Source: Candidatus Babeliales bacterium (GTDB taxonomy: Bacteria > Babelota > Babeliae > Babelales > JANWKD01). Taken from it: a stretch of DNA of 64,000 nt. The notes under the pieces were generated by a model that saw only the letters and a list, made by a program, of their open reading frames with translations, was not told the DNA's origin and ran no database searches. Positions within the stretch are counted from its first letter, which is position 1, and the number at the start of each line of letters is the position of its first letter. Made by a program: the position numbers and the translations under genes. This document shows positions 4,350 to 63,989 of the stretch, one piece after another. The stretch is from NCBI GenBank assembly GCA_963701665.1, contig OY969622.1, positions 1,273,193 to 1,337,192 of the forward strand, given 5' to 3'.

Positions 4350-5225
4350 TTATTGTTCTAAATTTAAAGTATCTTCGCGAGCTTTTTTGACTGCTAATTT
4401 AATGGCGCTGATTGTTTTAACGTCTGACTCCGTTATACAAAAATGCTGCGAACGCACTTTTTTGTTGGTAGCAAGCATATATATCCAGGCATAACTCACT
4501 AGCTGTTCTATTGCCCCCAGGCCACAAAAAATAGATGCTAAGCAAGGTTGCCCTGCAGCACAGGAAAGCCCTGCTGCCGAACAATTTGTGCTGCCACACG
4601 TGGAACAGGTAATTGGTACCATGATATCTATATTTGAAATTTGTTCTTCATGATATTTGCGTACTCGTAGATCAAAAAATCGTAAAGTGCCAGAACGAAT
4701 TGTTATATATTCTTCAAGCTTTTTTTGATCGCCTTTTAAAAGCTTTGCCATTGTGTTTGTTGTACAAGTAAAACGGTTAAGATTGTCTTGGATAAGCCGT
4801 GGATTTAATCGATCAGTTTCAATAACACCACACCATGAACGATTGCCTGCAAGATTTTTTGACGATGGTATAGTTTCCCACAAATCAACAGTACCATAAA
4901 AAGGATTTGTTGTGGCCTCACATACAAAACTAAGTGCTGGGTGTTGCCCATAAGTAACTGTTTTTAAATTCTTTTTATAAACACCATAAAAAATATTCTC
5001 AAATTGATCAGTTGCATCCAAAAGATTAGTGCAAATAGCCTTATGAGCAACATTCTTATGTCGCCCATAGTGCATACACTCATAACTTATTAACTTTGAC
5101 GCATCGGTATACTCCATTGCCATTAAATGCAGGCCCCCCATTAAAATCAAAACACCCAAGCTTAATTTTTTTGAAATTTGTATATTAGAAAATTTTACCG
5201 ATATAAATTTGATTGTTTTTTGCAT
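4350..5225 (-). CDS. Hypothetical secreted protein with Cys-rich/hydrophobic C-terminal region
   Basis: 291-aa ORF; hydrophobic leader ending LMA|MEY. Confidence 0.6.
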   Translation of the reverse strand: MQKTIKFISVKFSNIQISKKLSLGVLILMGGLHLMAMEYTDASKLISYECMHYGRHKNVAHKAICTNLLDATDQFENIFYGVYKKNLKTVTYGQHPALSFVCEATTNPFYGTVDLWETIPSSKNLAGNRSWCGVIETDRLNPRLIQDNLNRFTCTTNTMAKLLKGDQKKLEEYITIRSGTLRFFDLRVRKYHEEQISNIDIMVPITCSTCGSTNCSAAGLSCAAGQPCLASIFCGLGAIEQLVSYAWIYMLATNKKVRSQHFCITESDVKTISAIKLAVKKAREDTLNLEQ

Positions 5226-5349
5226 AATTTCTATACTTTATTATATGAAAACGAACGTTTTTTATGGTAACTGCGGGCTTTTCACTCGTTTCATTATTAC
5301 ATTTTTTGTTAGTATACTCTTTTCCTCGTTCACAAAAAAGGATTTTAGC

Positions 5350-8073
5350 GTGACATTACCTAAAGCAAACGATGCAATTTTTCTTATAGATGGTTCTGGT
5401 TTTTTATATCGTGCCTATTATGGCGTACGTCCTTTACATACTCCTCAAGGGATTCCCGTTCAGGCCGTCTATAGTTTCTGCCGCATGATTAAAAAAATTA
5501 TGAACACATTTCATCCCAAACATATGGCACTCGTGTGGGATAGTAAAGGCGAAACGATTCGTCATGAAATATATCCTGCGTATAAAGCGACACGCCAAGC
5601 CCCTCCAAGCGATCTTTTTGAACAAAAAAAATATATTCAACAATTTGCTGACCTTATTGGCCTGAAACAGATTGAAAAACCTGGCGTAGAGGCTGATGAT
5701 TTATTATATTCGCTTGCCCAAGATTACGCTCGCCAAGGAAAAGATGTCGTTATTTTAACGTCCGATAAAGATATGGCACAAACCCTCGGTGATCACGTAA
5801 CAATATATGACGCGTTTAAGGATGCCTTTATCACCCCCGCATCATTCTTAGAAGCAAAAGGATTTCCTATTGAGAAGTTACCTTTTTACTTTGCGCTGGT
5901 TGGCGACACTTCGGATAATATACCCGGTGTAAAAGGCATTGGGGAAAAAACCGCGACTGAACTGGTGAAACAGTTCGCCTCTCTTGAAGATTTGTACGCG
6001 CGTATTGGCGAAGTTGCCAAAGAACGCACGCGCACTTTATTAACAGAACAAATAGCAAACGCGTTTTTAAGTGAGAAATTATTCCGCCTTCATTATTATG
6101 ATTTACAATATGCGGAACAAGCACTCGCTTTTGATCAAAACGCGTGGGCAAATGCACAACCACTTTTTAAAGAATTAAATTTTAAATCACTGCTAGAAGA
6201 AATTGCAAAAACAACACCTGAGGCTGTGCAGCCGGTAGCTTTGTTATCAGAAACAAAGGGATACAAATTTAAAACGGTCACCACCGAGCAAGAGCTTACG
6301 GCTGTTTGCGATGAAATAAAAAAAGCAAAAGTTTTCGCTTTTGATACAGAACTTGATGGCTTAAAGCCTCTTGAAAATCATCTTGTTGGCGTAAGTGTGT
6401 GTACCCATAAGGGAACTGCTTATTATATTCCATTCGGCCATGTCACCGGCGAAAAACAACTTTCACGTGACGAAGTATTGCGCGCATTATCGCCGTTGTT
6501 GTTAGACCCAAACATAGAAAAATTCATGCATCATGCTAAATTTGATGAGCTTGCTTTGTGGCACTATAAGCAAGGCGTCAACAACCTGACTTTCGATACC
6601 ATGCTTGCGGCACAACTTGTCACCCAAGATTGGCAACGCATTAATCTCAAAGCATTATCAGAACTCTATTTACATGAACCTATGCTCACATTTGCACAGA
6701 TTGTTACTGATAAAAAATTAAAAAACTTTGCTGAAGTTCCTCTTGCAGGAGCAACTGAATATGCCGCAGCTGACGCACATCAAACCATGCAGCTTGTACC
6801 CATTTTAAAAAAGGCCCTGCACGAACAACAAATGGACACTCTTTATTATGATATTGAACTGCCGCTCATCCCCATTTTATTTTCCATGGAAGCCGAGGGC
6901 ATTTATCTCGATACAACCGTGCTTAAAAAACTTGATGTAATGGTAACTAAAGATTTAGAAACCGTGCGCACGCTCATCGTAGATTTAAGTGGCGCAACAT
7001 CTAAGGACATTAATTTAAATTCGCCAAAACAGGTAGAACAACTTTTATTTTATGAATTAAAATTACCTACCTACAAAAAAAGCACCAAGCGTACGGGCTA
7101 TTCAACCGATGTTGAAGTACTGCAAGAATTAGCCAAAATACACCCTGTGCCAAAATTGTTATTACAATACCGCGAACTCTCAAAACTAAAAAGCACTTAT
7201 ATTGATGCATTGCCAACCTATATTAATTCTGAAACTGGCAAAATTCATACGAATTTTAGTCAAACGGGTGTTGCTACCGGCCGGCTTTCTAGTTCTGATC
7301 CAAATTTGCAAAATATTCCTGTTGAAACTCCTTATGATATTCACATTCGTTCAGCATTCAAGCCAGAGGCAGGGCATGTTTTTCTTTCAGCCGACTATTC
7401 ACAAATTGAGTTGCGCGTTCTAGCATTTCTCTCACAGGATCCGACACTCATACAAGCTTTTTTACATGATGAAGATATTCATGCAAAAACTGCTGCAGGA
7501 CTCTTTGATGTTCCGATTAATAAAGTTACTCATGAACAACGTCAAATTGGCAAACGTATCAACTTCAGCATTTTATATGGATTAACTGCATACGGTTTAT
7601 CGCAAGATCTTGGTATTTCATTTACCGATGCTAAGCATTATATCGAAAAATATTTTGCACAATATCCGGGCGTCTCAACATGGATGGAAAATGTTCTTCA
7701 TGAAACTAAAAAGTATGGCTACGTAACTACCTTTTATGGAAGAAGACGTTTTATACCCGGCATTTACGAGAAAAACAAAAATTTATATGAAGCTGCTTGC
7801 CGTGTTGCCATTAACACAAAAGCACAGGGTACTGCCGCCGAGATTATGAAACGCGGCATGATCGCCTTAGATAAAACATTTAAAGAGAAAAAATTGGGCG
7901 CAAAACTTGTTATTCAAATCCACGATGAACTTATCATTTCAGTTCCTGAATCTGAGCTCAAAGAAACAGAAAAAATAGTACAAGATGTTCTTGAACATGT
8001 TGTTAAGTGGGATGATGTACCTTTGAAAGTTTCAACGCATGTCGGCTCTAACTGGCAAGAAGTAACAAAATAA
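5350..8073 (+). CDS. polA: DNA polymerase I
   Basis: 5'-exonuclease (LIDGSG..YRAYY, EADD), 3'-exonuclease (FDTE) and polymerase motifs (TGRLSSSDPNLQNIP, ADYSQIELR, QIHDEL). Likely GTG start at 5350 after AAGGA. Confidence 0.97.
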   Translation: MTLPKANDAIFLIDGSGFLYRAYYGVRPLHTPQGIPVQAVYSFCRMIKKIMNTFHPKHMALVWDSKGETIRHEIYPAYKATRQAPPSDLFEQKKYIQQFADLIGLKQIEKPGVEADDLLYSLAQDYARQGKDVVILTSDKDMAQTLGDHVTIYDAFKDAFITPASFLEAKGFPIEKLPFYFALVGDTSDNIPGVKGIGEKTATELVKQFASLEDLYARIGEVAKERTRTLLTEQIANAFLSEKLFRLHYYDLQYAEQALAFDQNAWANAQPLFKELNFKSLLEEIAKTTPEAVQPVALLSETKGYKFKTVTTEQELTAVCDEIKKAKVFAFDTELDGLKPLENHLVGVSVCTHKGTAYYIPFGHVTGEKQLSRDEVLRALSPLLLDPNIEKFMHHAKFDELALWHYKQGVNNLTFDTMLAAQLVTQDWQRINLKALSELYLHEPMLTFAQIVTDKKLKNFAEVPLAGATEYAAADAHQTMQLVPILKKALHEQQMDTLYYDIELPLIPILFSMEAEGIYLDTTVLKKLDVMVTKDLETVRTLIVDLSGATSKDINLNSPKQVEQLLFYELKLPTYKKSTKRTGYSTDVEVLQELAKIHPVPKLLLQYRELSKLKSTYIDALPTYINSETGKIHTNFSQTGVATGRLSSSDPNLQNIPVETPYDIHIRSAFKPEAGHVFLSADYSQIELRVLAFLSQDPTLIQAFLHDEDIHAKTAAGLFDVPINKVTHEQRQIGKRINFSILYGLTAYGLSQDLGISFTDAKHYIEKYFAQYPGVSTWMENVLHETKKYGYVTTFYGRRRFIPGIYEKNKNLYEAACRVAINTKAQGTAAEIMKRGMIALDKTFKEKKLGAKLVIQIHDELIISVPESELKETEKIVQDVLEHVVKWDDVPLKVSTHVGSNWQEVTK

Positions 8074-8087
8074 TTACGAATTATTAA

Positions 8088-8912
8088 TCATTTGTTTATC
8101 TGAATATCATCAGAATCCTGTAAAGCAGACGCCAAATCTTCTTCACTCAGAACCAATGCATTAACCTGAGAAGACTTTCTTTGAAGATGAACTTTTTTAA
8201 GCCCCTCTTGGTAAGTGGCCAAAGCATGTAGCGATAAGCCTCTGTCTGGCGTTGCTACTTGGGCAGATGATCTACTAAGCAGCTGCTGGCTACCATGTAT
8301 ATCGTCGCTACTCTCCGCTGTCTTAAATGTAGCGATTTCGGGAATTTCCAAAGAATCTATGCGACATGAATCACCTCGCTCTACTCTTTTCCTAGCTGCT
8401 GCAGATGCTGCCTCTTTTGTAAGCGCTCTTCGACGGTGTTTTTTACCGCCCTCTGCTTGACCAGGCTTCGGTGTTATTTCTCTAACTATCGCACTTTTGC
8501 TTTTCTGTTTCGATTTCTTCTTTTTCGATACTTCTTTTACAACTATTACGTCGGAACTTTCATTTTTACTTCTCAACGCTTTCAATTTTCCTTCTAGGCG
8601 TGCATTTCTTTTTTCAAGAGTCTCAATTCTGGCAGTGAGACTACCAAGATCACCACAAATATCTTCGATGTGATTAAGGGTCGCACGTTCATGTTCTGCA
8701 AACTTTACATCATAGGCCTCTTGCATCAGCTTAAATTGGTCATTTAAAGCAGCTGACAATCCTACAAGCATTTTTTCTTCTTCCCCAATAGTCGACCCTT
8801 TTGTTTTTGGCGACTTAATACGATCAAAAGGATTTTTTTTCATACCATTAAGACAAAAAATTAATCCAAATGAACATAGCAGAAGTGCTACTTTGTGAGA
8901 AAAACTATTCAT
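8088..8912 (-). CDS. Secreted hypothetical protein with coiled coil and basic NLS-like tracts
   Basis: Signal peptide ...LNG|MKK; heptad segment LTARIETLEKRNARLEGKLKAL; SKKKKSKQKSK and KKHRRR. Confidence 0.65.
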   Translation of the reverse strand: MNSFSHKVALLLCSFGLIFCLNGMKKNPFDRIKSPKTKGSTIGEEEKMLVGLSAALNDQFKLMQEAYDVKFAEHERATLNHIEDICGDLGSLTARIETLEKRNARLEGKLKALRSKNESSDVIVVKEVSKKKKSKQKSKSAIVREITPKPGQAEGGKKHRRRALTKEAASAAARKRVERGDSCRIDSLEIPEIATFKTAESSDDIHGSQQLLSRSSAQVATPDRGLSLHALATYQEGLKKVHLQRKSSQVNALVLSEEDLASALQDSDDIQINK

Positions 8913-14774: not shown

Positions 14775-15320
14775 ATGATTATAAAAAAAGCTTTCTTTTG
14801 CTTCATAATGTTAATGTCATGTTCTTTCACTTCACTTAGCATGCAAAAACCCAAGGTTAGATATTGCATCACGTTCAAAAAAGATGATGAACAGCCGGGC
14901 AGATATCAAGATCTAAAAACATTAGACCAGTTAGAAACAATGGCACGAAAATCATTCATCAGTTTACAAAAACAAAAGTATGTCCTATCTTCTGACGCCT
15001 TTTCAAGATTAAACGAAGCAAAAAAACAGTTTAACGGCAGTGAAGAAATCACTATTGATAAAGACATAATCAAAGATTTTCTTTCTTTTATCATGGTCGA
15101 TGGCGGCCGCGTAGAATTTTGGAAATTTCCTGATGGGACAATTGTAGACTTGAATGTTAAGTTAATTGATAGCCGGGAAGGAAGTATTTTCATAGAAGGT
15201 CCAATACTTAATATTGCGCGCGAAGCAAAATTTGTCACCCAGAAACCTAATGTTCAACAAATGCCTCAAGAAGAAAACAAAAACTCATCATGGTGGCAAA
15301 AGCAATGTTCCCTGCAGTAA
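14775..15320 (+). CDS. Secreted hypothetical protein with C-terminal CaaX-like motif (CSLQ)
   Basis: Signal peptide ...SLS|MQK; ends SSWWQKQCSLQ-stop. Confidence 0.7.
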   Translation: MIIKKAFFCFIMLMSCSFTSLSMQKPKVRYCITFKKDDEQPGRYQDLKTLDQLETMARKSFISLQKQKYVLSSDAFSRLNEAKKQFNGSEEITIDKDIIKDFLSFIMVDGGRVEFWKFPDGTIVDLNVKLIDSREGSIFIEGPILNIAREAKFVTQKPNVQQMPQEENKNSSWWQKQCSLQ

Positions 15321-19715: not shown

Positions 19716-19925
19716 ATGAAGAAATTAATTATCGCCTTTATTGCATCTATTCCTATCGCAGTGCTCAAACCAATGGAAGATAAAGCTGCTGTTGGTCTTA
19801 AGAAAATCAAAGCAACACAACAAGAACAAACAAAAAATAACAAATCATCTTCTCATATAAGAGATCAAGAATGCTTTTTTTGCGGCCACACAGATTGCGA
19901 TAATCTCAGAAGGCTTAAAGAATGA
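19716..19925 (+). CDS. Small secreted hypothetical protein
   Basis: AGAGG RBS; signal peptide ...LKP|MED; CFFCGHTDC motif. Confidence 0.55.
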   Translation: MKKLIIAFIASIPIAVLKPMEDKAAVGLKKIKATQQEQTKNNKSSSHIRDQECFFCGHTDCDNLRRLKE

Positions 19926-20461: not shown

Positions 20462-22993
20462 ATGAAGCTATCTCTTCATTTAAAGTATCTTTTTATACTT
20501 AGTTTTTTAAATTTTTATGCGTGCGAAATGTTGACATTTCCAGCACATAGTATTGATAATCAACATTCCTCTTCTTATGCTAATCTTCTAATTCCAGAAG
20601 AAGAATTCCTCATTAATGACGAATTCAAAGAGTTCATAAAAGAATATGTTGAAAGAACACGTAATACAACAGACGAAGAGACTCTTTCGATTGGATTACG
20701 CAACTGCTATAAAAAAATCATTGAAACACCAACGTGTACAACATTACCACTCAATGATCTCATAGATGCATTTCCCGAATTAGTAACAGAATTAGAGAAT
20801 CAAATCAAATCTCCTCGTCCTGCAACGAGTAATCTCCATGCTATTGTCGGTGATAGTACAATTGACTTTACGACTATTATGAGCTTATTGGCACAGCTAC
20901 AATATCTTATCAATCAACTGATTTTACAACAAGCAGCTTGTTGCAACCAGATATTTATTGATTTCCAACAAACATGGACTATTATTGCCAATCTTATTAC
21001 TCCTACAGCTATCGTTGATCTTTCTGGCGTATTTACTGCACTCAATGCTTGTTGCAATAATATAAACTCAGAATTCCAACAAACATGGACTATTCTTGCT
21101 AACCTTAACACAACAGCTACCGTTGACCTTTCTCCTGTATTTACCGCACTCAATGCTTGTTGCAATAACATAACCTCAGAGTTCCAACAAACATGGACCA
21201 TTATTGCTAATCTTAATACTACAGCTACTGTTGACCTTTCTCCCGTATTTACCGCACTGAATGCATGTTGCAATAATATAAACTCAGAATTTCAACAAAC
21301 ATGGACCATCTTAGCTGCCGGTTTCAATGGAACTTTCAGTGAAATTAATAGTTGTTGCACAAACATAACTTCTGAGTTTCAGCAGACATGGACTATTCTT
21401 GCTAACCTTGCTATAACAGCTACTGCTGATCTTTCTGGCGTATTTACTGCACTGAATGCCTGTTGCAATAATATAAACTCAGAATTCCAACAAACATGGA
21501 CTATTTTAGCTGCCGGTTTCAATGGAACTTTCAGTAGTATTGCCACCCTTACTAACGATTTCGAGGCAACATGGACCATCTTAGCTGCAGGGTTTAATGG
21601 CACATGGACCATATTAAATGCCGACTTTGATGCGACATGGACTATTTTAGCTGCTGATTTTGATGGAACTTTCAGCATGTTAAATGTGTTAATTCAAAAT
21701 GATTGCAATCCAACTATGATCACACAAGCAAGCTTCGGTGCAAGTGGTGGTACTCAGTATGTTATTTCAACGCCAGGTGTTTACAAATTTGGCAGCAATA
21801 TTATCTTCACGCCAGCTTCAGCAACTTCAGCTATTCTTATTGCCACTTCGGGCGTCACTTTAGATCTGCAATGCTTCACAATTAGTCAAGGAAATGTCGT
21901 AACAGGCGTAAATGCTATCCTTGTTGATACTGGATTAACTGGTGTTTATATTAGAAATGGCATGATAGAAAATTTCACACGCGCTGGAATCTCATTCCAA
22001 GGAGACAATACGAATGTCGGGATTGATAATACTAACATCGTGTCATGTGCAACTCGTGGTATCGAGCTCCTTTCCACAGGAGTCTCGAGTCAAGACATGA
22101 CCATTGCAAATTGTAATATATATAACTGTTCTCAAGGAAGTAGTGCCGATTTTCCGGTTGAGTTACAATTATGTCAAGAATGCAACATACTGAATTGTAA
22201 TTTTACCGGAAATGGCAATCAGTCAAATACTATCACCGTGCTCAATATGAGTGGCTGCCTTGACTGTGAGGTAACCAATATTACTATGTATGAAAATATT
22301 GGCTCTATCTTCAATGGCATAACTTTAGACACTACTTGTTCTTATAATAATTTCACCAATTGCATAATAATAAATAATCAAAGTGTATTATCGACTGGCA
22401 CCTGTTCAGCAATTAATATTAATGGAGCTAACGGTAATGCTTTTAACTATTGTGTCGCTAATAATAATCACGCTCTCAATAATGGCACCATCAACGCCAT
22501 CTGGCTTCAAGGTATTGCGCCGAATAACAATACGTTTAGCTTATGTATAGCAGCCTTTAACACAGGCGGAATCAGTTACGGCTTTTATCTCAGTAGTGGT
22601 TCTTATAATAACCTCCTCTATTGCCAAGCCAATGAAAATGTAGGATCTGTAACCTCAGCTGGATTTAATTGTAATGCCACGGATACGTTGTTTGATAATG
22701 GTATAGCATTAGCTAATGCCGCAAATCAAACATTTGGCTTCAATATTTCAGCAGGTAGTTGTGTCATTAAGGATTGTCTCGCTGCATTTAATGTAGGTCC
22801 TCACGGCAGCAATGGTTTTGGGTTTAATAATACGAGCGCTGAATATCTATTCTATAGAAATGTAGCCTATGAGAATAACACTCAATTTAACGGAATAGCA
22901 GCAGGAGCTATAACAGTGCCCATAGGGTCACCTGCATCACAAAACCTTAACACTGTTACTGGACCATGGACTAATGTATCAGTTGCAAGCTAA
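20462..22993 (+). CDS. Secreted Cys-Cys repeat stalk plus right-handed beta-helix protein (paralog 1)
   Basis: Signal peptide; 36/29/11-aa repeats (DLSxVFTALNACCNNINSEFQQTWTIL); ISTPGVYK..GVTLDL beta-helix start; Asn/Cys-rich rungs. Confidence 0.85.
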   Translation: MKLSLHLKYLFILSFLNFYACEMLTFPAHSIDNQHSSSYANLLIPEEEFLINDEFKEFIKEYVERTRNTTDEETLSIGLRNCYKKIIETPTCTTLPLNDLIDAFPELVTELENQIKSPRPATSNLHAIVGDSTIDFTTIMSLLAQLQYLINQLILQQAACCNQIFIDFQQTWTIIANLITPTAIVDLSGVFTALNACCNNINSEFQQTWTILANLNTTATVDLSPVFTALNACCNNITSEFQQTWTIIANLNTTATVDLSPVFTALNACCNNINSEFQQTWTILAAGFNGTFSEINSCCTNITSEFQQTWTILANLAITATADLSGVFTALNACCNNINSEFQQTWTILAAGFNGTFSSIATLTNDFEATWTILAAGFNGTWTILNADFDATWTILAADFDGTFSMLNVLIQNDCNPTMITQASFGASGGTQYVISTPGVYKFGSNIIFTPASATSAILIATSGVTLDLQCFTISQGNVVTGVNAILVDTGLTGVYIRNGMIENFTRAGISFQGDNTNVGIDNTNIVSCATRGIELLSTGVSSQDMTIANCNIYNCSQGSSADFPVELQLCQECNILNCNFTGNGNQSNTITVLNMSGCLDCEVTNITMYENIGSIFNGITLDTTCSYNNFTNCIIINNQSVLSTGTCSAININGANGNAFNYCVANNNHALNNGTINAIWLQGIAPNNNTFSLCIAAFNTGGISYGFYLSSGSYNNLLYCQANENVGSVTSAGFNCNATDTLFDNGIALANAANQTFGFNISAGSCVIKDCLAAFNVGPHGSNGFGFNNTSAEYLFYRNVAYENNTQFNGIAAGAITVPIGSPASQNLNTVTGPWTNVSVAS
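20930..21690 (+). repeat. Intragenic tandem repeats (108/87/33-bp units)
   Basis: CA(A/G)CA(A/G)ACATGGAC recurs at 108, 108, 87 and 108 bp spacing, followed by 33-bp units. Confidence 0.85.
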
Positions 22994-23009
22994 CAATAAA
23001 GGAAGATTA

Positions 23010-25577
23010 ATGAAGCATATTTCCCCCTTTAAAAAATATTATTATAGCTTTATTTTTTTAATTTTTTTTGTTTGTAATTTTTGGACAGCTCAGGCACATG
23101 ACAACAAGTATTGGCAAGATACGCTGGTATCTTACCAACATGAAGGAATTATTTTAGATGAATTTACCATCAATGATGACTTCAAAGAGTTCATAAAAGA
23201 ATATGTTGAAAGAACATCTGATGCTGGAAACGAGGAGATTCTTTCGATTGCATTGCGCAACTGCTATACAAAAATCATTGAAACTCCTATGTGTACAACA
23301 TTACCTCTCAATGATCTCATAGATGCATTTCCCGAATTAGTAGCAGAATTAGAAGATCAAATAAAATCACCACGTCCCCCTTCGAATAATCATTTTATAG
23401 TCGGTCCAGGAGTATGCGATTTAGCGTCTATTGCCAACCTTTTGCTCCATTTAAAATTTCTCATCAATCAACTGATTGTGCAACAAGCAGCTTGTTGTAG
23501 CCAGATATTCTCAGACTTCCAACAAACATGGACAATGCTTGCCCAAATTAGTACTTCCACAGCCACCGTTGATCTTTCTTCAGTATTTACCGCACTCAAT
23601 GCCTGCTGCACTAACATAAATTCTGAATTCCAACAAACATGGACCATTCTTGCCAATCTTACCGTAACAGCATCTGCTGATCTTTCTGCCGTATTTACCG
23701 CTCTGAATGCTTGTTGCACTAACATAAATTCTGAATTCCAACAAACATGGACCATTCTTGCTAACCTTACGGTAACAGCATCTGTTGACCTTTCTGCTGT
23801 ATTTACCGCTCTGAATGCTTGTTGCACCAACATAAACTCAGAATTCCAACAAACATGGACTATTTTAGCTGCTGGATTCGATGGAACTTTTAGTGACATT
23901 AATGCATGCTGTACTAATATCAACTCTGAATTCCAACAAACATGGTCCATTCTTGCCAATCTTCATACTACAGCTACTGTTGACCTTTCTGGCGTATTTA
24001 CCGCATTGAACGCCTGTTGCAATAATATAAACTCTGAATTCCAACAAACATGGACCATCTTAGCTGCCGGTTTCAATGGTACTTTCAGTAGTATTGCCGC
24101 CCTTGCTAACGATTTCGAGGCAACATGGACTATTTTAGCTGCAGGATTTAATGGGACATGGACCATATTAAATGCCGACTTTGATGCAACGTGGACTATC
24201 TTAGCTGCCGGATTTGATGGAACTTTCAGTGTTTTAAATGTGTTAATTCAAAATGTCTGCAATCCAACTATGATCACACAAGCAAGTTTCGGTGCTGGTG
24301 GTGGTACTCAGTATGTTATTTCAACACCAGGTGTCTACAAATTTGGCAGCAATATTACCTTCACACCAGCTTCAGCAACTTCAGCGATTCTTATCACCAC
24401 TTCAGGCGTCACTTTAGATATGCAATGTTTCTCAATCAGTCAAGGAAACGCGCTAGCCGGCGTAAACGCTATTGTTGTTAATACTGGATTAACTGATGTT
24501 TATATTAGAAATGGCACAGTAGAAAATTTCACAAATGTTGGCATCTCATTTCAAGGAAACGATGCTCGTGTTGGTATTAATAATACCACACTGCTATCAT
24601 GTGCAACTCGCGCTATTCAGTTCCTCCCAACAGGAACAAGCCAAAACATTATCATTCAAAACTGCAATATTTATAATTGCTCGCAAGGAAGCAGTGCTGA
24701 TAATCCCCTATCCTTACAATCATGTAAGGAATGCATCGTACAAAATTGTGAATTTACCGGAAATGGCAATAGTACCAATACCATCACTGTGATTAATATG
24801 AGTAGTTGCATTGAATGCATTATATCAAACATTGCTATGTATGAAAATCTCGGAGCCGCTTTTAACGGTATAACATTAGATAGCACATCTTCCCTTAATA
24901 ATTTCACCAATTGCACTATTGTAAATAACCAAAGCATTACTACAGATGTGAACGTCATTAACGTGAATGGTAACGCAAATATTTTAATCGATTGTGTCAC
25001 TAATGACAATATTGCGGCAGGAAACACTGCTGGTTTTATTCTTGCTGGATCCTATAATACGTGTATTGGATGTACTGCTTCAGCTAACACATCCTTAGGT
25101 ACTTTTGGATCTTGCACTGGCTTTAGCATAGATCCTGGTAATTTTAATATTTTGCTCGATTGTGTAGCAGATTCAAATTTTGGGGGAGGTAACCCAGTTG
25201 CATCGATTTTGGGGGAAGACGGTGATCCATCTACGGCATGTTTCGTTTTATCTTTTTCCAGTTTAGTAGACCATTTTACAGCGAATAATAATTTTGCTAC
25301 AGGTTCAGGTTCTACCACAGGTATTTGGCTTTTCGAAGGCGCTATGAATATAGTCAAAGATTGTCTATGCGCGAATAACTTCGTACCATTCAGTACCGCT
25401 CAAGCTGGTATCACCAATGATACTTCAGAATATTTATTTTATAGAAATGTTGCCTATAACAGTACATTCCCAATTGTCGGGGTTGCAGCAGGATCAGTAA
25501 CAACGCCTCTCGCACCCGCATCACAAAACATAGCATCGGTGACCGCACCATGGACTAATCTTGCTCTTCAAACTTAA
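23010..25577 (+). CDS. Secreted Cys-Cys repeat stalk plus right-handed beta-helix protein (paralog 2)
   Basis: Likely start ATG 23010 (AAGGAAG). Near-identical N-domain and repeats to paralog 1; the distal beta-helix diverges. Confidence 0.85.
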   Translation: MKHISPFKKYYYSFIFLIFFVCNFWTAQAHDNKYWQDTLVSYQHEGIILDEFTINDDFKEFIKEYVERTSDAGNEEILSIALRNCYTKIIETPMCTTLPLNDLIDAFPELVAELEDQIKSPRPPSNNHFIVGPGVCDLASIANLLLHLKFLINQLIVQQAACCSQIFSDFQQTWTMLAQISTSTATVDLSSVFTALNACCTNINSEFQQTWTILANLTVTASADLSAVFTALNACCTNINSEFQQTWTILANLTVTASVDLSAVFTALNACCTNINSEFQQTWTILAAGFDGTFSDINACCTNINSEFQQTWSILANLHTTATVDLSGVFTALNACCNNINSEFQQTWTILAAGFNGTFSSIAALANDFEATWTILAAGFNGTWTILNADFDATWTILAAGFDGTFSVLNVLIQNVCNPTMITQASFGAGGGTQYVISTPGVYKFGSNITFTPASATSAILITTSGVTLDMQCFSISQGNALAGVNAIVVNTGLTDVYIRNGTVENFTNVGISFQGNDARVGINNTTLLSCATRAIQFLPTGTSQNIIIQNCNIYNCSQGSSADNPLSLQSCKECIVQNCEFTGNGNSTNTITVINMSSCIECIISNIAMYENLGAAFNGITLDSTSSLNNFTNCTIVNNQSITTDVNVINVNGNANILIDCVTNDNIAAGNTAGFILAGSYNTCIGCTASANTSLGTFGSCTGFSIDPGNFNILLDCVADSNFGGGNPVASILGEDGDPSTACFVLSFSSLVDHFTANNNFATGSGSTTGIWLFEGAMNIVKDCLCANNFVPFSTAQAGITNDTSEYLFYRNVAYNSTFPIVGVAAGSVTTPLAPASQNIASVTAPWTNLALQT
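23480..24240 (+). repeat. Intragenic tandem repeats (same family as in paralog 1)
   Basis: Repeated GAATTCCAACAAACATGG units encoding ACC.NINSEFQQTWTIL. Confidence 0.85.
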
Positions 25578-25615
25578 AATTTAGGATCTTATCCCTAAAT
25601 TAGTAAAATAAATTA

Positions 25616-25660
25616 AAAACGCCCCCGAACTAACATTAGTTCGGGGGCGTTTTGTTTTTT
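25616..25660. terminator. Bidirectional intrinsic terminator
   Basis: AAAACGCCCCCGAACTAA-CA-TTAGTTCGGGGGCGTTTT perfect stem between convergent genes. Confidence 0.9.
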
Positions 25661-25674
25661 GATAAAAATATCAA

Positions 25675-44990: not shown

Positions 44991-46235
44991 TTAGTTATTG
45001 GCATTACCATTTTCATATTTCTCAAAAAGTTCTATTGCCTCTTGTTTACCACTAGCACGAACATGATCAAAAAGATTAATTTGTCTCCCTAATATTGGAC
45101 TTATATATTGTACATTCGGATCAGCCCCATGTTGCAATGACAACTCTATTAATGCCAAATCATAATTAAATGCCTCACAGGCAATTCCAAGGAGAGGAAC
45201 TTTCATCGCACGCACAGGTCGTGATATCCCTCCATAATCGAACCTATAATTAGCATTTAATCCATTGTTAATTAAAAGTACAAATAGTTTCTTAAATTCT
45301 TCACGTTCCGCTTCGCCAAACATAGCCCCAGCCATCTTTTCGTATGATATATGCATAAAAATCCCTGGCTGACTCCAGCAAGATATATGCATAAAAGCTT
45401 TATCATCAGGAAAATTTTCCAGCGTTGCACCATTTTCCAACAATTCAATTGCAAGGCCTGGCTCTAATTGAAAATCAAGATAACTGGGCAAACCTTGATT
45501 GTTTATTTTTACTCGATGATTAAGTCCCACGCTCATAAGATCCCTTATGACCCCACAAGGCGCATCATCATTTGGAGTAAATTTTAACTTACCACACAGG
45601 TGAATAATATTTTTTATATCTTTTTGCATAAAGCTAAATATCTCACTTTTTTCCAATATTTGAATATCATTTTTTGCATCCTTAGCATCTTTAAGATCCC
45701 AAGACTCGATCAAATGTATAAGTTTTGCTTTGTTTGTGAGCAATTCAGAATAAATTAGCCCATAATTTTTTGTATCAACCGTAGCCCAACTATAAATATC
45801 TTTTAAAAGCTGAAGAAAATCTTTTGTAGTTTTAATTGATGAGGGCATAAGGGAATAATATATTGTAAGTTTAAGTTCATCTACAAAATCACTGTAAGAT
45901 AACGGCTCATCATCATTTTCTTTTTCATTCGTTCCTCCTTTGTGTTTTTCTCTTTTGAGCTCCTTTTTCGGTGTTCTTATTTGATCTTCATGACTTAGAT
46001 GAAAAAGATTATTGCGTACTTGCCTGCTAAGAGTCATAAGTTCGTTGAGTGTCGATGATTCTTCATCGTCCTCATTACCATCACTAAAGTACAAAAAAGC
46101 TTGGTTATCCGGGGATATTCTTCTTAATCCATGCAAAGCACAAATTTGAGCTGTTGGCTCGCTTTCTTCACCTTCTTCCATGCATAGTGCATCATAAACA
46201 GGTAATATACTTAGCAAAAGAAGAAGAATTAGCAT
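44991..46235 (-). CDS. Secreted protein with degenerate C-terminal ankyrin repeats
   Basis: ...ALC|MEE; LLENGA, LINNGLNAN, LQHGADPN. Confidence 0.7.
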   Translation of the reverse strand: MLILLLLLSILPVYDALCMEEGEESEPTAQICALHGLRRISPDNQAFLYFSDGNEDDEESSTLNELMTLSRQVRNNLFHLSHEDQIRTPKKELKREKHKGGTNEKENDDEPLSYSDFVDELKLTIYYSLMPSSIKTTKDFLQLLKDIYSWATVDTKNYGLIYSELLTNKAKLIHLIESWDLKDAKDAKNDIQILEKSEIFSFMQKDIKNIIHLCGKLKFTPNDDAPCGVIRDLMSVGLNHRVKINNQGLPSYLDFQLEPGLAIELLENGATLENFPDDKAFMHISCWSQPGIFMHISYEKMAGAMFGEAEREEFKKLFVLLINNGLNANYRFDYGGISRPVRAMKVPLLGIACEAFNYDLALIELSLQHGADPNVQYISPILGRQINLFDHVRASGKQEAIELFEKYENGNANN

Positions 46236-46370: not shown

Positions 46371-46988
46371 TTATTTGAACTTTTTCACCCAAAAAACAAA
46401 AGAATTCCCTCGATCTTCAACGGTCCCTCGTTCATCTATTACCGTAGGTTGCACATTATCAATAACGATCGTAGTTTTTTCAAAACCATAATGTTCCCAG
46501 ATTAAACCTGCGTCATAATAATCTTTTGGTTTTAACGGATGATTTTCATCGCGCACCGCTGTAATAAGCGCCAACCCTTTAAATCCCCATTCTTTCACTC
46601 GATCTTCAAGCATCGTAAACATTGCCCTACACAATTTTTGCTTGCGATGTGAGGGCAAAACAATGACATCGCCACAATAATAATAATCATTGAGCGTCAA
46701 TCCATATTCTTGAAAAAGCGCATCAATAGTTGGCACATAGTCGCGCACCGCACTCATAGGAATTCCCGTTATAAATCCACACAATTGCTCATCTTCCTGC
46801 GCAAGAACTATCATTCCCTCGTTATTGTGTGCAAACCACGCGACATACTCTTTTTTTTCATTCAGCGTAGGCGCGTGCAAATAAGGATATTCCTTGAATG
46901 TATCCAAAATAATTTCTGCCACCGGGGGAACATACTGCATAATGCTCAACCCAAGCACTATTGAAATAATAGGAGCTATCATAAACAT
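46371..46988 (-). CDS. GNAT-family N-acetyltransferase
   Basis: YYCGDVIVLPSHRKQKLCRAMF motif A; WEHYGFEK. Confidence 0.8.
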   Translation of the reverse strand: MFMIAPIISIVLGLSIMQYVPPVAEIILDTFKEYPYLHAPTLNEKKEYVAWFAHNNEGMIVLAQEDEQLCGFITGIPMSAVRDYVPTIDALFQEYGLTLNDYYYCGDVIVLPSHRKQKLCRAMFTMLEDRVKEWGFKGLALITAVRDENHPLKPKDYYDAGLIWEHYGFEKTTIVIDNVQPTVIDERGTVEDRGNSFVFWVKKFK

Positions 46989-47086: not shown

Positions 47087-48325
47087 ATGAAAAAAAGTAC
47101 AATTCTTTTATTAATTACGTTCATGTTTCTAACTACAGCGATGGAAGAACTGCCTGAAACTACGACAACCGAAGAACCGCCAGAAAAAATTGCAAAAACA
47201 ATTGAAAATCCGATCATACAAGAACCAGCATCATTACTATCGCAAGCATCACGACAAGCAATTGCCACCATTATGAATACGCTACCAGAAGAAATGACCC
47301 ACTATTTAACGACTATAGCCATCAATGAGCCAATTAATAAAAGTGGCAAACGTTGGCTGCATATGGCGCGAACGCCCGAAGATGTCTATAAAGCACTCGC
47401 ATTAGGCGCTAATGTAAATATTCTAACGAACAAAGATGAAACGCCACTTAATACTATACTTGCCAACGGCTACACTGACGCGGCAATTGCATTGGTCACT
47501 CATGGAAAGAATGTTAATCTTGCAACATATGATATATATGACACAACACCATTGCACAATGCTGCTTTTACCGGTAATGAAAAAATTATTGAATTATTAA
47601 TACCGGCATACGAAAGATTAGATATACTTGATTCCGCAGGTTTCACACCACTTTTCTATGCTATCTCCAATAACCCTTCTGTTGTTTCTTTTCTTATAGA
47701 AAAGGGAGAACGCGCGGACGAACTAAATACTAATCGTACAACCGCACTCCATGTAGCAGCTCAATTTAATCCTTCATTACTTCCATTACTTTTGGATCAC
47801 GGCGCTAAAATACTTATCAATGATCGGAATAATCGTGGACTCACTCCTCTCCATAAAGCTACATCTCTTGGCCGTGCTGATGGCGTTAGGATATTGCTCG
47901 AGAATGGCGCAGATCCCAATATACCCGATAATGACCAAAGAACACCTATTTTTTCCTCGATTGAAACAAATCTTACACCATTAAAATTATTATTGGCCAA
48001 CGGCGCCGATGTTAATATACGATCCAGCAAAGGAATAACAGTGCTTATGATTGCTGCGCACAATAATTATCATGCCGTTAAAAAATTGCTCAAAACAGGC
48101 AAAGTTACCACACTCAATGATAATAATACATTCAATAAAACAGCACTCTATTATGCCATCGAATCACAAAATCTAAAAACGGTTAAACTGTTGCTTGCAT
48201 CCGGTGCAAATGTACATCTAAATGAATACGATCTTGCATTTTCTCTTGAAAATGAAGCAATTCGCACTCTCATAAAAGATGCTTATTCTGCTCGTCAAAA
48301 AAAACTTTCCCTCCAAAATTTCTAG
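47087..48325 (+). CDS. Secreted ankyrin-repeat protein
   Basis: ...TTA|MEE; about 9 repeats (TPLHNAA, GFTPLFYA, TALHVAA, GLTPLHKA, LLENGADPN). Confidence 0.92.
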   Translation: MKKSTILLLITFMFLTTAMEELPETTTTEEPPEKIAKTIENPIIQEPASLLSQASRQAIATIMNTLPEEMTHYLTTIAINEPINKSGKRWLHMARTPEDVYKALALGANVNILTNKDETPLNTILANGYTDAAIALVTHGKNVNLATYDIYDTTPLHNAAFTGNEKIIELLIPAYERLDILDSAGFTPLFYAISNNPSVVSFLIEKGERADELNTNRTTALHVAAQFNPSLLPLLLDHGAKILINDRNNRGLTPLHKATSLGRADGVRILLENGADPNIPDNDQRTPIFSSIETNLTPLKLLLANGADVNIRSSKGITVLMIAAHNNYHAVKKLLKTGKVTTLNDNNTFNKTALYYAIESQNLKTVKLLLASGANVHLNEYDLAFSLENEAIRTLIKDAYSARQKKLSLQNF

Positions 48326-50687: not shown

Positions 50688-50694
50688 GAGTAAC

Positions 50695-51562: not shown

Positions 51563-52852
51563 ATGATTTTAGCTTTTTTACTCGTATTCATTATTCATAC
51601 CGCTCTCGTAGGCATGGAACAAGAGAAAGAAAACGAATTACATGTGTGGTATGATTTTCAATGTGCTCCATCAACAAAAGCCCCTGACATAAAACAAGCG
51701 GCACATCATAAAGTTATTCCAGAGACTTTCGCTCATCATTATTTCCCTCAATGGGTAGAAATTACACTACAAGAAGGAACGGCCAATCGTTATAAGGCCG
51801 CAAGCAAAACTATTGCATGGACTACTGCAGAAAACCATCAAAGGTGTTATTATTTCAACAAAAAATTTGCAAAAAGCATACGTGAAATTGCTTTTAATAA
51901 ACCCATTGAGTTATTTGATATATCATCCAATGGGGAAAAATTGATAGTTGTTACGGGCAAAAATTTTTGCACAATATGGGATCTAAAAGAGCACAAGCAA
52001 ATTCAAAAAGATACCCTGACATCAGAAAACAAAACGCCAATTATTACGGCAGTACAATTTATTGATTCTAATTCCTGCCTTGCTGCCGCTGATGATCACA
52101 CATTCACGTGCTTCGCTTGTGATGGTACATCACAAAAATATTTTGCCCTCAACCATCATGACCCAACAGTAGCACTTTCAATAGATAATGTTATTAACAG
52201 GCACCATTGTTTTTTTGCTTACCACGCAAGTGGTGATGTCCATTATTATCACATGATGGATGATACAGAATATAACGATCTCATATACAAACTTGATGAA
52301 AAAATACCCCCATTCAATGCAATTCTATCAGCTAATGATAAAAATTGGATTGCACAGGATGAAAACAAAGGACTCTATTGCTTTACTCTTCAATCTGGCT
52401 CTCATTTTATTTTTGATACATTAAATTATTGTGGCACCTTAGTAGGAAAAACGTATAAAGGAACAATTCTTATATTCGAAGAATCTGAAGAATCTACCCA
52501 CGAACTTCCGAAATTAATTAATTTTTCTCTAAACACACGGAGAATACTTGATAAAATACCGCTTGCCAGAAACACAAAACCAGTTCCCCAAAAATTCTAT
52601 TCATCTCGAATAATACCTAAAGAGAATTGGCTTCCTCGCTTCTTAATTTATCAAGATAACCCAGCTTTTTTCACCTTATTGAAAAAGAAATCGCCATCGC
52701 CAGAACAATCAGTATGGCTTGCTCAATTTGCAGAAGCATCGAAAGCGCAGAACCACGCAGCAATAAACGACCTTTTAAATCATGAAATTTTTAAAAACCT
52801 GAGTCCTTCTACACAGGAATCATTAAAAGCGCTGTATGCACCTGAACATTAG
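51563..52852 (+). CDS. Secreted protein with degenerate WD40/beta-propeller-like region
   Basis: ...LVG|MEQ; ISSNGEKLIVVTGKNFCTIWDL, ITAVQF. Confidence 0.6.
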   Translation: MILAFLLVFIIHTALVGMEQEKENELHVWYDFQCAPSTKAPDIKQAAHHKVIPETFAHHYFPQWVEITLQEGTANRYKAASKTIAWTTAENHQRCYYFNKKFAKSIREIAFNKPIELFDISSNGEKLIVVTGKNFCTIWDLKEHKQIQKDTLTSENKTPIITAVQFIDSNSCLAAADDHTFTCFACDGTSQKYFALNHHDPTVALSIDNVINRHHCFFAYHASGDVHYYHMMDDTEYNDLIYKLDEKIPPFNAILSANDKNWIAQDENKGLYCFTLQSGSHFIFDTLNYCGTLVGKTYKGTILIFEESEESTHELPKLINFSLNTRRILDKIPLARNTKPVPQKFYSSRIIPKENWLPRFLIYQDNPAFFTLLKKKSPSPEQSVWLAQFAEASKAQNHAAINDLLNHEIFKNLSPSTQESLKALYAPEH

Positions 52853-52902: not shown

Positions 52903-54270
52903 CTATGAATAAATAATTTTAGTTGGTTGAAATACAGGATATCCTTTATAGAAGCTGCCTCCGGGCAAAAAATAAAGAGCAATCGGCGTCACAATACTTC
53001 CTCCTAATGCAAGCCATTTTGCAATAAATTCAGCTGATTCTAATTCAATAATAGTTTTACGTTTCAGTTGTGCTCCGGCTAATTGCATACTTTTCGTAAC
53101 AAAATATGCTGTTAATTTTATAACATTTTCTATCCATGCATGTTTGCCGCCATGGTTTGTCTGGCTTGGACCAAATGAACTAAGCCCCAATAAGCCTCCT
53201 GAACATAATCCAATGAAAGCTGCTAATGATATTTTTTTTGCAAAAAATGGATAATGCATTCTTTTTTCAAAAAAATTTGGTTCCACAGCATCTTGAAGAA
53301 CGCTCTTACACTCTTGTGGAAGAGTAGCTGAAAATTGTAACTCGCCATTTTCTCCTGCTTTAAAGGACGAAATACACTCAATAGGATTATTATATAATGC
53401 AATCGTTATCTGAATATTAGACATGCATCTGGGAAAAATTACATTTTTTACGTTGCTAGAAATTACTCTGAGTATTCTTATATTTGGAAAATGTTGTAAT
53501 AAAGATGCAATATCTAATTTAATAAAATTATTACGTGAAAGATCTAGGAAATCAACACTGTCTTTATTTGGTTTCAAAGATATTCCATATAATGTGGATA
53601 AGCCCTCACCAGCCAAAGAAATCATATTACTAAAACGCTGGGCTCTTTCATGATCACGCATTAAATCAGCTACGGATCGTATACCACAACGCTGAAGACA
53701 TTTATGAACTTTTTTATCATATTCAGCAAATTCATCAAAATGAAGAGCCATTTTTTGTATTGATTCTTCAGGGAGCCCAAAATAATCAGCCGCTTTCATA
53801 ACCGGCTTAATATTTTCTTGAGGAATAACATGCATGGTTATATCATCATTGGCCACATCAATAACAGTTTCAACAATGTCTCTTCTTGCAATATCACGAT
53901 CAACTAACCTGGCAAGATCAATGTAAGAATCTGGAGGGCAAAAATAATCCTCTCTTGTGTCATTAATACCATCAAAGCTTCCTTCTTTGAGCACATACTG
54001 TTCCTCAAAACAGTAAAAAAAAGGAACTTTTCTTGTTATATCGCTCTTAAAATCATCTTCATCAGAAATATTAAATATATTTTGAGCGGCATTTAATTTT
54101 TGCGCACGATCTAGATCAACATGAAAAAAGTTGCCATCGGCATCTTTCATGGTAATTTTCCTAGCCATTTCTTGCGGTTCACCATGCAGAAGTTGCGCAA
54201 TAAGTTCTGAATTCATTGCATGAGTAAAAAGAGATGTACTAAGAAATAATAAAAGAATGATATTCTTCAT
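52903..54270 (-). CDS. Secreted leucine-rich-repeat protein with BTB/Skp1-like segment and C-terminal hydrophobic helices
   Basis: ...THA|MNS; VMKAADYFGL; ISLAGEGLSTL, LDLSRNNF, ALYNNPI. Confidence 0.6.
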   Translation of the reverse strand: MKNIILLLFLSTSLFTHAMNSELIAQLLHGEPQEMARKITMKDADGNFFHVDLDRAQKLNAAQNIFNISDEDDFKSDITRKVPFFYCFEEQYVLKEGSFDGINDTREDYFCPPDSYIDLARLVDRDIARRDIVETVIDVANDDITMHVIPQENIKPVMKAADYFGLPEESIQKMALHFDEFAEYDKKVHKCLQRCGIRSVADLMRDHERAQRFSNMISLAGEGLSTLYGISLKPNKDSVDFLDLSRNNFIKLDIASLLQHFPNIRILRVISSNVKNVIFPRCMSNIQITIALYNNPIECISSFKAGENGELQFSATLPQECKSVLQDAVEPNFFEKRMHYPFFAKKISLAAFIGLCSGGLLGLSSFGPSQTNHGGKHAWIENVIKLTAYFVTKSMQLAGAQLKRKTIIELESAEFIAKWLALGGSIVTPIALYFLPGGSFYKGYPVFQPTKIIYS

Positions 54271-57427: not shown

Positions 57428-58711
57428 TTAACGGCTTTCTCCTACCACCCCACCATATTTCCGTTTCATAAAATAACCCCGTGCTTTAAGATCTTTATAC
57501 AAGTTTTTGCACTGTTGATCGTCCTTATCACAATATAACTTAGGAGAGCCTTCAATAAAGTCTGGATCAAAATTTTGTTTAACAAGGGATCCCTTGTTAA
57601 AAACAGTTACAGCCGCACTTGCACATTGGTATCTATGGCTAATAAAGCTTATGTTACTGGTATATTCAAGAGGAATCTCCAGTTCCTTTTTATTATTTCG
57701 CATTAAAAGAAATTGACCCGTGTCTCTTCCGCAGTCCCAAGCTCGAAAAATCGGGGTAGCATTAGCATGAATAAGAATATTTTCGTTCTTCTCAGGGAAA
57801 GCTCGAACCTTATCAGAATCATTAAACTTAAATAGGAAGCCATTGGAAAGTAGCATGCCTTGATTTGACGTTAAAAGGCTATACATCCGCTTCAACGTTC
57901 CAAAAGGATCAACAAGATGCCGAAGCGTCCAATTAGAAACAATCAAATCAACCTTTCCTTTGAGGTCAAAACCTCTTTTTGAAAGCTCTTCATCAATGTT
58001 TTCTATTTTAAACCGATTCAGTTGATAAAGAGTAACGTGACCCTCTTGCTGTACTATTTCTTCGCATTCTTTTCCACCAGTAACACTAAAAATATGAAAT
58101 CGTTTTCCGCTTTTTTTACATGCTTTACTTTGCAAAATGCGCATAGCATGCCTTCCCCAGCCGCCTCTTGCACAACCAACATCTATGATATAAACATCCT
58201 CTTTTTCCTGATTCTCAGAAGCAAGATGCTTAAGTAACAATTTATCATTAATGCCAAGCAATCCATAAAAATCGAAGCCATTATATAACCATTGATCATC
58301 GCCCGTATCTTTGTTCAGTTCAAATGCCTTATCTGCTTCAGCCTGAATTTGCGATGGTCGATCACCAAGCACAGCATTTTCTTCTTTTTCTATAGCAGAT
58401 TGGTATTTTTTCCAATCCGCAGCACCCACACCTAAGGCCACACCAAGAATAACAGGTCCCTTTATATTAAGAGCTTTTGAGGCTCTATTATTAGTTCTCA
58501 TAAAACGTGTATTAAAACACGATGATTTTAAAGGCTTATGATATGTGTTAGTAAAACGCGTAGTTGAAAGTGCATTTCCTCTAAAAAATCCCCTATTAAA
58601 GGCCATCCCCCGATATTTCATAGGATACAGAGAAAAACATAGAAATAATAAGCTAAAAAACAGTAATTTTTTACCAATCAAGAAAGACTCCATTTCAATT
58701 TCATTAACCAA
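57428..58711 (-). CDS. Secreted class I SAM-dependent methyltransferase-like protein
   Basis: IIDVGCARG motif I; VDLIVSNWTLRHLVDP..LKRMYSLL; signal peptide ...LYP|MKY. Confidence 0.75.
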   Translation of the reverse strand: MVNEIEMESFLIGKKLLFFSLLFLCFSLYPMKYRGMAFNRGFFRGNALSTTRFTNTYHKPLKSSCFNTRFMRTNNRASKALNIKGPVILGVALGVGAADWKKYQSAIEKEENAVLGDRPSQIQAEADKAFELNKDTGDDQWLYNGFDFYGLLGINDKLLLKHLASENQEKEDVYIIDVGCARGGWGRHAMRILQSKACKKSGKRFHIFSVTGGKECEEIVQQEGHVTLYQLNRFKIENIDEELSKRGFDLKGKVDLIVSNWTLRHLVDPFGTLKRMYSLLTSNQGMLLSNGFLFKFNDSDKVRAFPEKNENILIHANATPIFRAWDCGRDTGQFLLMRNNKKELEIPLEYTSNISFISHRYQCASAAVTVFNKGSLVKQNFDPDFIEGSPKLYCDKDDQQCKNLYKDLKARGYFMKRKYGGVVGESR

Positions 58712-58845
58712 GAAAAGCTTAATTCACTCCATTTATTTTACATTAAATACTCAATTTGTCAATAATTAGGCGTTGCAACACAGAAAATACAAAAAATGTG
58801 TATTTATATATTTACTAAAAACAGAGACTTTTTAGGAATTTTTAT

Positions 58846-59051: not shown

Positions 59052-59058
59052 CAACATA

Positions 59059-60360: not shown

Positions 60361-60415
60361 AGAAGACTTAACTCATACAACACTATGCATGGTATCATGT
60401 TGTTTTTAAAGAAAT

Positions 60416-63338: not shown

Positions 63339-63380
63339 TAAACGCGAGTTCGATGTAAATTTTGCAATAAACATAGAAAT

Positions 63381-63538
63381 GTCTTCACGACCCTACTTCG
63401 CTCTATGAGCTTCGAAGGGCTGTGGGGACATGTTCTTCGAAGTTTTTAACGAAGGAGAAGCCAGAACTTTAATTAATTCCTTAAAGGAACTGATTTTATT
63501 GGCTGGATTGCCACACCTACTTCGGGCAAAGCCCTCCT
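63381..63538. repeat. Palindromic element copy 9 (reverse orientation, nested modules, degenerate end)
   Basis: GTCTTCACGA[CCCTACTTCGCTCTATGAGCTTCGAAGGG]..CCAGAACTTTAATTAATTCCTTAAAGG..CTGGATTGCCAC. Confidence 0.8.
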
Positions 63539-63545
63539 TAAATCT

Positions 63546-63989
63546 TTATTTGACATGAGAGTAATTAAAGCTTGGTGAGTCCCCACCACTGGCTCTAAAC
63601 TCCGCATAAAAACTATTCATATCACTCACTTTGCTATAATTAAAAGAAGGTGAATCTGTTCCGCCGGAAGCTTTAAATTCCGCCCAAAAACTATTAAAAT
63701 CATGTACCTTGCTGTGATTAAAACCAGGCCCGCCGCAACCACTGGCTCTCCACTCAGCGTAAAAACTAGTAAAGAGTGTAGAAGGCGATGGTTTCGGTTT
63801 TTTGACGACAGCTTTCTTTGACAGTCCTGCATAAATTGGTCCAGGAGCTGGCTTTGGTTTTGGTTTGACAACGGCTCTACGTACGAGGGTTTGTTTAGCT
63901 CGTCTTACAGGAGCAGCTTTTTTCTTTTGCATTGCGCTTAACTGAAAATTCGCACATAAAACAACTATCACAAATAATTTTTTATACAT
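63546..63989 (-). CDS. Secreted basic protein with three ~25-aa C-terminal repeats
   Basis: ...LSA|MQKKK; three copies of SF[YW]AE[WF][RK]ASG..P.FN.S.V. Confidence 0.7.
   Translation of the reverse strand: MYKKLFVIVVLCANFQLSAMQKKKAAPVRRAKQTLVRRAVVKPKPKPAPGPIYAGLSKKAVVKKPKPSPSTLFTSFYAEWRASGCGGPGFNHSKVHDFNSFWAEFKASGGTDSPSFNYSKVSDMNSFYAEFRASGGDSPSFNYSHVK

Follow-up and report, generated by a model that had tools for sequence, protein, structure and literature searches.

The window analysed here is the final 64 kb (64,000 nucleotides, positions 1,273,193 to 1,337,192) of the 1,337,192-base single-contig genome of a Candidatus Babeliales bacterium (OY969622.1; G000 below), and the element in question is a methionine that stands directly after the predicted signal-peptide cleavage site (position +1) of many otherwise unrelated proteins. 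This signal peptide-Met motif is enriched across the genome, is conserved between diverged paralogues and is biased towards proteins with eukaryote-like domains. It is best called a real, selected, lineage-level convention, akin to the +1-residue rule of Bacteroidetes. As to its role, we tentatively favour, at nearly but not quite even chances, a host-facing, Met-retaining N-terminus of the NatB type for secreted effectors. The genome is placed in Ca. Dependentiae (Babeliales), bacteria that parasitise protists; the top two matches of the window's Rho, among its best 80 loci, are Ca. Dependentiae metagenome-assembled genomes at 81% and 79% identity, and the named matches of its nucleotide transporter are mostly from Babeliales or Dependentiae. 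The relatives sort into 21 families within one order.

An earlier note on this DNA had listed eleven such motifs, and all of them are present at the genes that it named (hyphens mark the proposed cut; ORF, open reading frame):

4350 to 5225, minus strand: 291-residue ORFan, LMA-MEY; the Met is residue 37 (codon start 5117); no Pfam or NCBIfam family
8088 to 8912, minus strand: 274-residue ORFan, LNG-MKK; Met residue 24 (8843)
14775 to 15320, plus strand: 181-residue ORFan, SLS-MQK; Met residue 23 (14841)
19716 to 19925, plus strand: 69-residue ORF with a ribosome-binding site (RBS), LKP-MED; Met residue 20 (19773)
37210 to 39648, minus strand: BamA (five POTRA domains and Omp85), LVS-MQG; Met residue 31 (39558)
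44991 to 46235, minus strand: 414-residue protein with only weak F-box/ankyrin-like Atlas look-alikes, ALC-MEE; Met residue 19 (46181)
47087 to 48325, plus strand: 412-residue ankyrin-repeat protein, TTA-MEE; Met residue 19 (47141)
51563 to 52852, plus strand: 429-residue weak WD40-like protein, LVG-MEQ; Met residue 18 (51614)
52903 to 54270, minus strand: 455-residue protein, THA-MNS; Met residue 19 (54216)
57428 to 58693, minus strand: 421-residue weak methyltransferase-domain protein, LYP-MKY; Met residue 25 (58621)
63546 to 63989, minus strand: 147-residue basic protein, LSA-MQK; Met residue 20 (63932)

A cleavage rule blind to the +1 residue places the cut directly before the Met, as had been claimed, at ten of these eleven sites; the miss is 57428, with Pro at -1. 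E. coli LepB accepts Pro at this position. The accessible part of PMC9360617 holds nothing on such acceptance. Our recount gives 11 of 24 signal-peptide-like window ORFs (one or two of the 24 doubtful), in line with the 11 of about 23 first reported. Among the labels given to the protein bodies, Pfam upholds ankyrin for 47087 and BamA and, weakly, WD40-like for 51563 and methyltransferase for 57428; the leucine-rich repeat label falls, as neither 44991 nor 52903 has a Pfam or NCBIfam match and 52903 lacks any such repeat-like motif. The two homologues found for 52903 (33% and 29% identity) both keep M-N, after A or G. The 19716 ORF has an AGGA site upstream, a cleavage site that scores weakly under the +1-blind rule and a predicted mature peptide of about 50 residues with three C-terminal Cys.

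For the genome-wide test that the earlier note had proposed, genes were called with a custom caller (1,242 genes), signal peptides with a custom rule and cleavage sites with a -3/-1 rule blind to +1, all sites being predictions. Of 441 signal-like genes, 9 lipoproteins and 64 weak sites were removed; +1 was Met in 103 of the 368 left, compared with 0–17 at other offsets from -8 to +11. When internal Mets were masked before prediction the count was 100/371, and genes whose start had been shifted upstream by re-calling had +1 Met in 28 of 58 cases. The same code run on 77 Bacteroidota loci as a control gave +1 Met in 3/102 (Fisher p 2e-9 versus this genome) and +1 Gln in 30/102, which recovers the known Q-rule as a positive control. 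Under a looser rule the Met-class holds 220 of 602 signal-like ORFs; clustering by body homology spreads these over 156 of the 460 clusters, 123 of which are singletons. Both Met-class and non-Met sets contain false members: among the annotated Met-class entries, no fewer than five are anchors, pilins or cytosolic enzymes. The Met-class amounts to about 18% (about a sixth) of genes, or about 200 predicted exported proteins. For annotation, this means that gene callers may choose the internal ATG and lose the signal peptide, as our custom caller did at 52903 and others.

The consensus is [L/S/T/I/A/V]-x-[A/S/G/C/P], then the cut, then M-[E/Q/D/N], with the Met mostly at residue 18–26. Among 253 Mets in the c-region, the preceding residue is A in 86, S in 45, G in 43, C in 18, P in 10 and T in 10; the 202 preceded by A, S, G, C or P have L 69, S 34, T 18, I 17, A 17 and V 16 at -3. 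Together with a basic n-region and a hydrophobic h-region, this pattern marks the proteins as predicted Sec/signal peptidase I substrates. A lipoprotein (signal peptidase II) reading of the Cys-Met sites was rejected: matches to the lipobox [LVI][ASTVIG][GAS]C had been removed (10/511), and the 18 sites left with Cys at -1 have no lipobox. The +2 residue (n = 202) is E in 80, Q in 26, D in 22, N in 15, H in 10 and K in 9. E, D, N or Q stands there in 157/220 Met-class proteins versus 49/141 high-confidence non-Met sites, and this excess peaks at +2, falling to 99, 69 and 64 at +3 to +5. Small +2 residues (25/220 versus 46/141) and hydrophobic ones (18/220 versus 37/141) are depleted, and the preference is unchanged with one gene per family. 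Motifs resembling nuclear localisation signals, K[KR]x[KR], occur within the first 50 mature residues of 37/220 Met-class versus 18/309 other proteins. No co-signal was seen at the C-terminus of Met-class proteins, in either the last residue or CaaX.

That the ATG serves as an additional translation start for a cytosolic isoform, as the earlier note had allowed, or a Kozak-like start for host ribosomes, appears extremely unlikely. The RBS check that it had suggested was run: an RBS-like site precedes 96/202 first ATGs and 1/202 internal ATGs of the motif, compared with 30/890 other internal ATGs, and the amino acids at -1 and -3 are those of a peptidase site. G is indeed frequent at positions -3 and +4 relative to the ATG, but Ala/Gly and Glu/Asp codons account for this; Ser at -1 uses AGY codons in 21/49 cases versus 32% genome-wide, a difference that is not significant, and the synonymous codons at -1 are used as they are before any internal ATG. 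With codon usage at background, Kozak-like selection was rejected.

To follow the Met through divergence, disjoint paralogue pairs were aligned with the +1 position masked. The +1 Met is kept in 18/28 pairs, whereas a non-Met +1 residue is kept in 3/27 and other nearby Mets in 1/15. Of the misses, two are one-column shifts with a Met adjacent, and a number of the rest are false members. Conservation of the flanking columns is 9–17 of 25–28 pairs, so the margin of the Met over its neighbours is modest. The two scored Met-class orthologue pairs at relatives' loci and one gapped pair all have the Met, too few to weigh. These data bear on the idea that the Met is a relic without function of its own, either an old start codon left behind when the gene acquired an upstream signal peptide or a piece of a mobile signal cassette. 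The carriers are for the most part ORFans restricted to the lineage, neighbouring paralogues have signal sequences in common, and one ATAD3-like carrier has its nearest named matches in protists, animals and plants (30–38% identity), with an alignment to eukaryotic ATAD3 that begins only at residue 178. We nevertheless hold a relic to be very unlikely: the Met is kept in pairs of 22–50% identity, with -1 changing between A, G, S, C and P; cytosolic starts in this genome (n = 640) are M-K in 123, M-N in 83 and M-E in 33, unlike the Met-class, with M-E in 94/220; and unrelated genes are on average 35% identical in their signal DNA. A DNA cassette shared between unrelated genes was thereby rejected, the likeness being confined to tandem neighbours.

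The motif is particularly frequent on ankyrin, WD40 and DnaJ proteins; on proteins that stay in the envelope it turns up only sporadically. All but one of the 40 ankyrin genes encode a signal peptide, and 28 of these 39 have the motif; it is present in 7/7 WD40 genes (both read by eye) and in 6/7 DnaJ genes. The three classes together reach 41/52 distinct genes versus about a third of other signal-like ORFs, so the enrichment on eukaryote-like domains that had been put up for testing is there. Most of the 203 Met-class and 240 non-Met proteins searched against Pfam have no family; other Met-class proteins are M48-like, ATAD3-like and NCA2-like. The ATAD3-like protein (ATAD3_N plus AAA) lies on the minus strand at L250:14955-16646 (G000:C1 about 1,049,950-1,051,650) and the NCA2-like protein at L232:3687-5276; both may be relevant to any remodelling of mitochondria by these parasites.

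The caveat that BamA makes the motif non-exclusive to host-targeted proteins was right, yet the BamA Met is itself sporadic, found in 4–5 of 39 orthologues (G000, G001, G014, G048 and perhaps G006). BamA is an envelope-resident exception, and the order as a whole does not conserve its Met. A TolB-like protein, which is soluble, has M-Q in this genome and Met in 1/24 orthologues, and Skp, a secretin, AmiC, an S41 protease, a thioredoxin, SodFe and GH3 are residents without it. Many Babeliales BamA proteins (L131-L150 genes) also have a long acidic N-terminal extension ahead of POTRA1. Some normally cytosolic enzymes carry a signal peptide or anchor, namely glutamine synthetase, Fe/Mn SOD and thioredoxin reductase-thioredoxin fusions (L113:3040-4425, L114:16819-17610, L234:14526-15983).

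Signal peptidase I is encoded by two tandem genes (G000:C1:911618-913409, L094), and the Babeliales peptidases read VP[TS]GS and NW[TV]KR versus IPSGS and DYIKR in E. coli. These departures would suit a rule on the bacterial side, in which signal peptidase or the Sec path prefers Met at P1', or Met-E resists periplasmic aminopeptidases or is modified, as in the Q-rule pyroglutamate. So would the frequent non-Ala residues at -1 (S 47, G 43, C 18, P 9 of 202), the Leu at -3, and the presence of Met on 5–6 of 63 BamA and TolB-like orthologues, above the 2% background. Such a rule seems rather unlikely, as the catalytic boxes are identical in Met-rich (G000, G014, G032) and Met-poor (G016, G034) genomes, the Met-rich family f11 has one peptidase gene, and conserved resident substrates mostly lack the Met. 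A dedicated peptidase paralogue was discarded, its copy-number association being weak (p 0.047, kin not independent), f11 having one gene and the boxes being alike. As for a modifying partner, there are four GNAT genes, three of them encoding a signal or anchor, and the sole one with a cleavable signal was rejected, matching 1 of 61 genomes; no glutaminyl cyclase-like partner was found among the GNATs, the only enzyme class searched. The residue before the catalytic Lys, Thr or Val in Babeliales and Ile in E. coli, has a role in the substrate pocket and may explain the Leu at -3.

In the host-facing reading, the proteins would be exported by Sec, cut by signal peptidase I just before the Met, released onward via the encoded type II secretion system (T2SS; two secretins, GspC, GspG and pseudopilins) or vesicles, and would arrive in the protist host cytosol. 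There a large acidic or amide +2 residue would block host Met aminopeptidase, avoid recognition as a Met-hydrophobic or Arg/N-degron and fit NatB acetylation. The host would likely treat the exposed end as normal, stable and Met-retaining, likely aiding survival or delivery in the host cell, while an ordinary bacterial +1 residue (Glu, Asp, Gln, Lys) would act as a degron. On resident proteins the Met would be tolerated, not required, and would therefore drift onto BamA or TolB in Met-rich lineages. NatB targets a Met that precedes N, D, Q or E, and Met aminopeptidase strips a Met that precedes small residues (PMC8358657); Met-hydrophobic ends and Glu exposed by signal peptidase are degrons (PMC8037982); and the titles of two papers cited in PMC6160973 state that Listeria proteins secreted by Sec follow the N-end rule of the host. 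The observed ends are of the NatB class (157/220, with the peak at +2) and would avoid both Met aminopeptidase and Met-hydrophobic degrons (PMC8358657, PMC8037982). They differ in that the Met would arise post-translationally, by a bacterial peptidase, and that acetylation is hypothetical. Support for the host-like N-terminus of the earlier note is indirect, coming from the eukaryote-like enrichment, the +2 preference, the depletion of small and hydrophobic +2 residues and the NLS-like motifs.

Several points weigh against this reading. Plain degron avoidance has no need of Met specifically, and among non-Met proteins no leaning towards other stabilising residues is visible, as judged with a noisy predictor. 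NatB is described as co-translational (PMC8358657), so a protein imported in folded form would not necessarily be acetylated. The eukaryote-like enrichment is overstated, owing to ankyrin paralogy (34 belong to one 44-member cluster) and false signal calls in the non-Met set, and ankyrin-rich families can be Met-poor (f8, f12). BamA and the TolB-like protein carry the Met yet stay in the envelope. Finally, effector-like proteins lack it, namely a ubiquitin hydrolase, a RING protein, a Macro-domain protein and 11 ankyrin proteins. Signal-bearing proteins without the Met include:

L259:16729-17925: ubiquitin hydrolase
L260:580-1623: RING protein
L236:12835-13491: DOT1-like methyltransferase
L251:19226-19987: Macro-domain protein

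The M-[E/Q/D/N] end could also act as a sorting tag that a bacterial receptor or translocon, at the T2SS or a vacuole-crossing step, recognises to divide outbound from resident Sec substrates. This we regard as possible, if doubtful. A single fixed residue and a sharp choice at +2 look more like the demands of a binding pocket than like a set of safe alternatives, a tag explains the fixed dipeptide as well as a host-facing end does, and T2SS genes are encoded. Counting against a tag, the T2SS recognises folded surfaces rather than N-termini, the soluble TolB-like protein with M-Q would be mis-sorted, effector-like proteins without Met exist, and no partner gene was identified. The Plasmodium export element PEXEL offers a parallel, its consensus having E, Q or D as the second residue. 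Both would put a proteolytically exposed N-terminus on host-bound proteins, and a mature N-terminus directs export in Plasmodium even if made by signal peptidase (PMC10653839). The systems differ in that Plasmodium uses the eukaryotic ER, plasmepsin V and PTEX, while Babeliales would use a bacterial Sec/signal peptidase I site with a fixed Met and a hypothetical export role; no conserved Arg of an RxL motif lies upstream of the Met sites, and -3 to -1 form the peptidase site. A PEXEL-like bacterial address is conceivable on a minority view, in which the Sec cut would expose M-[E/Q/D/N], a receptor would export about 200 effectors to the protist cytosol and the end would pass as a host-made, NatB-acetylated start.

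The closest bacterial precedent is the Bacteroidetes Q-rule, with Gln at +1 of signal peptidase I substrates cyclised by glutaminyl cyclase (PMC5837995, PMC10653852); TM6 does not appear in the available parts of these two sources. Both rules have a lineage-wide preferred +1 residue on unrelated proteins and a relaxed -1 (A/G/S/P/C), read as protection of the N-terminus. Here the residue is Met with a +2 preference (in this genome +1 is Q in 17/368 and M in 103/368), the bias is to eukaryote-like proteins rather than all substrates, the distribution is patchy across families, and no modifying enzyme was found among the GNATs examined. Chromulinavorax destructans, of the same order, has a similarly signal-peptide-rich effector repertoire, with signal peptides on 44% of coding sequences and 78% of ankyrin proteins; the available part of that report does not contain the word methionine (PMC6561590). 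No prior description of a Met-after-cleavage rule was found in the mostly open-access literature on signal peptides in Dependentiae or Babeliales, secretion in Babelota, Met after cleavage, and N-degrons with effectors.

The strength of the rule varies across Babeliales, from pronounced to near background depending on the family. The 20-kb BamA regions taken from 40 relatives have Met as the +1 residue at 28/209 sites (0–7 at other offsets), and 20 further, mostly ankyrin-bearing regions have it at 8/78. Direct examples come from families f1, f3, f5, f6, f7, f9, f10, f11, f12, f14, f15, f17 and f19. A DNA pattern for hydrophobic-x-small-Met-Glu, a crude measure limited to M-E, was counted in 121 genomes and gave densities per Mb of 47 in f1, 35 in f11 and f17, 26–27 in f5 and f19, and 11–14 in f12, f13, f14 and f18, with at least 25 in 33/121 genomes. 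Since four outgroup genomes give 8–20 per Mb, many Babeliales are at background by this pattern. Pattern density and ankyrin density correlate across 41 genomes (rho 0.55, with kin not independent). An Atlas search with the N-terminal 45 residues gave no match. Similar A-M-E starts may occur in Holosporales proteins.

If the address-system reading is true, the motif would allow effectors to be catalogued from sequence across a whole parasitic phylum, for which we know of no described type III or IV effector signals. The Met rule predicts a candidate effector set among the ORFans and an N-terminal proteomic signature of Met-started, possibly acetylated peptides; it implies that a bacterial secretome is under selection by host N-degrons or else that a hitherto unknown sorting receptor exists. 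It also provides a testable handle on how the hundreds of signal-bearing ankyrin and other eukaryote-like proteins of Dependentiae act in the host.

Elsewhere in the window, which has no Rfam matches, positions 20462-35325 encode two signal-bearing beta-helix/coiled-coil paralogues and a signal-bearing giant protein of 3,216 residues, all without the Met. A polA-like ORF has an in-frame upstream hydrophobic extension (5245-5350, plus strand) whose ATG lacks an RBS, the GTG at 5350 being the likelier start. A GNAT-domain protein with a hydrophobic N-terminus lies at 46371-46988 (minus strand), and an IS481-like transposase at 1140-2171 (minus strand) has three copies in the genome.

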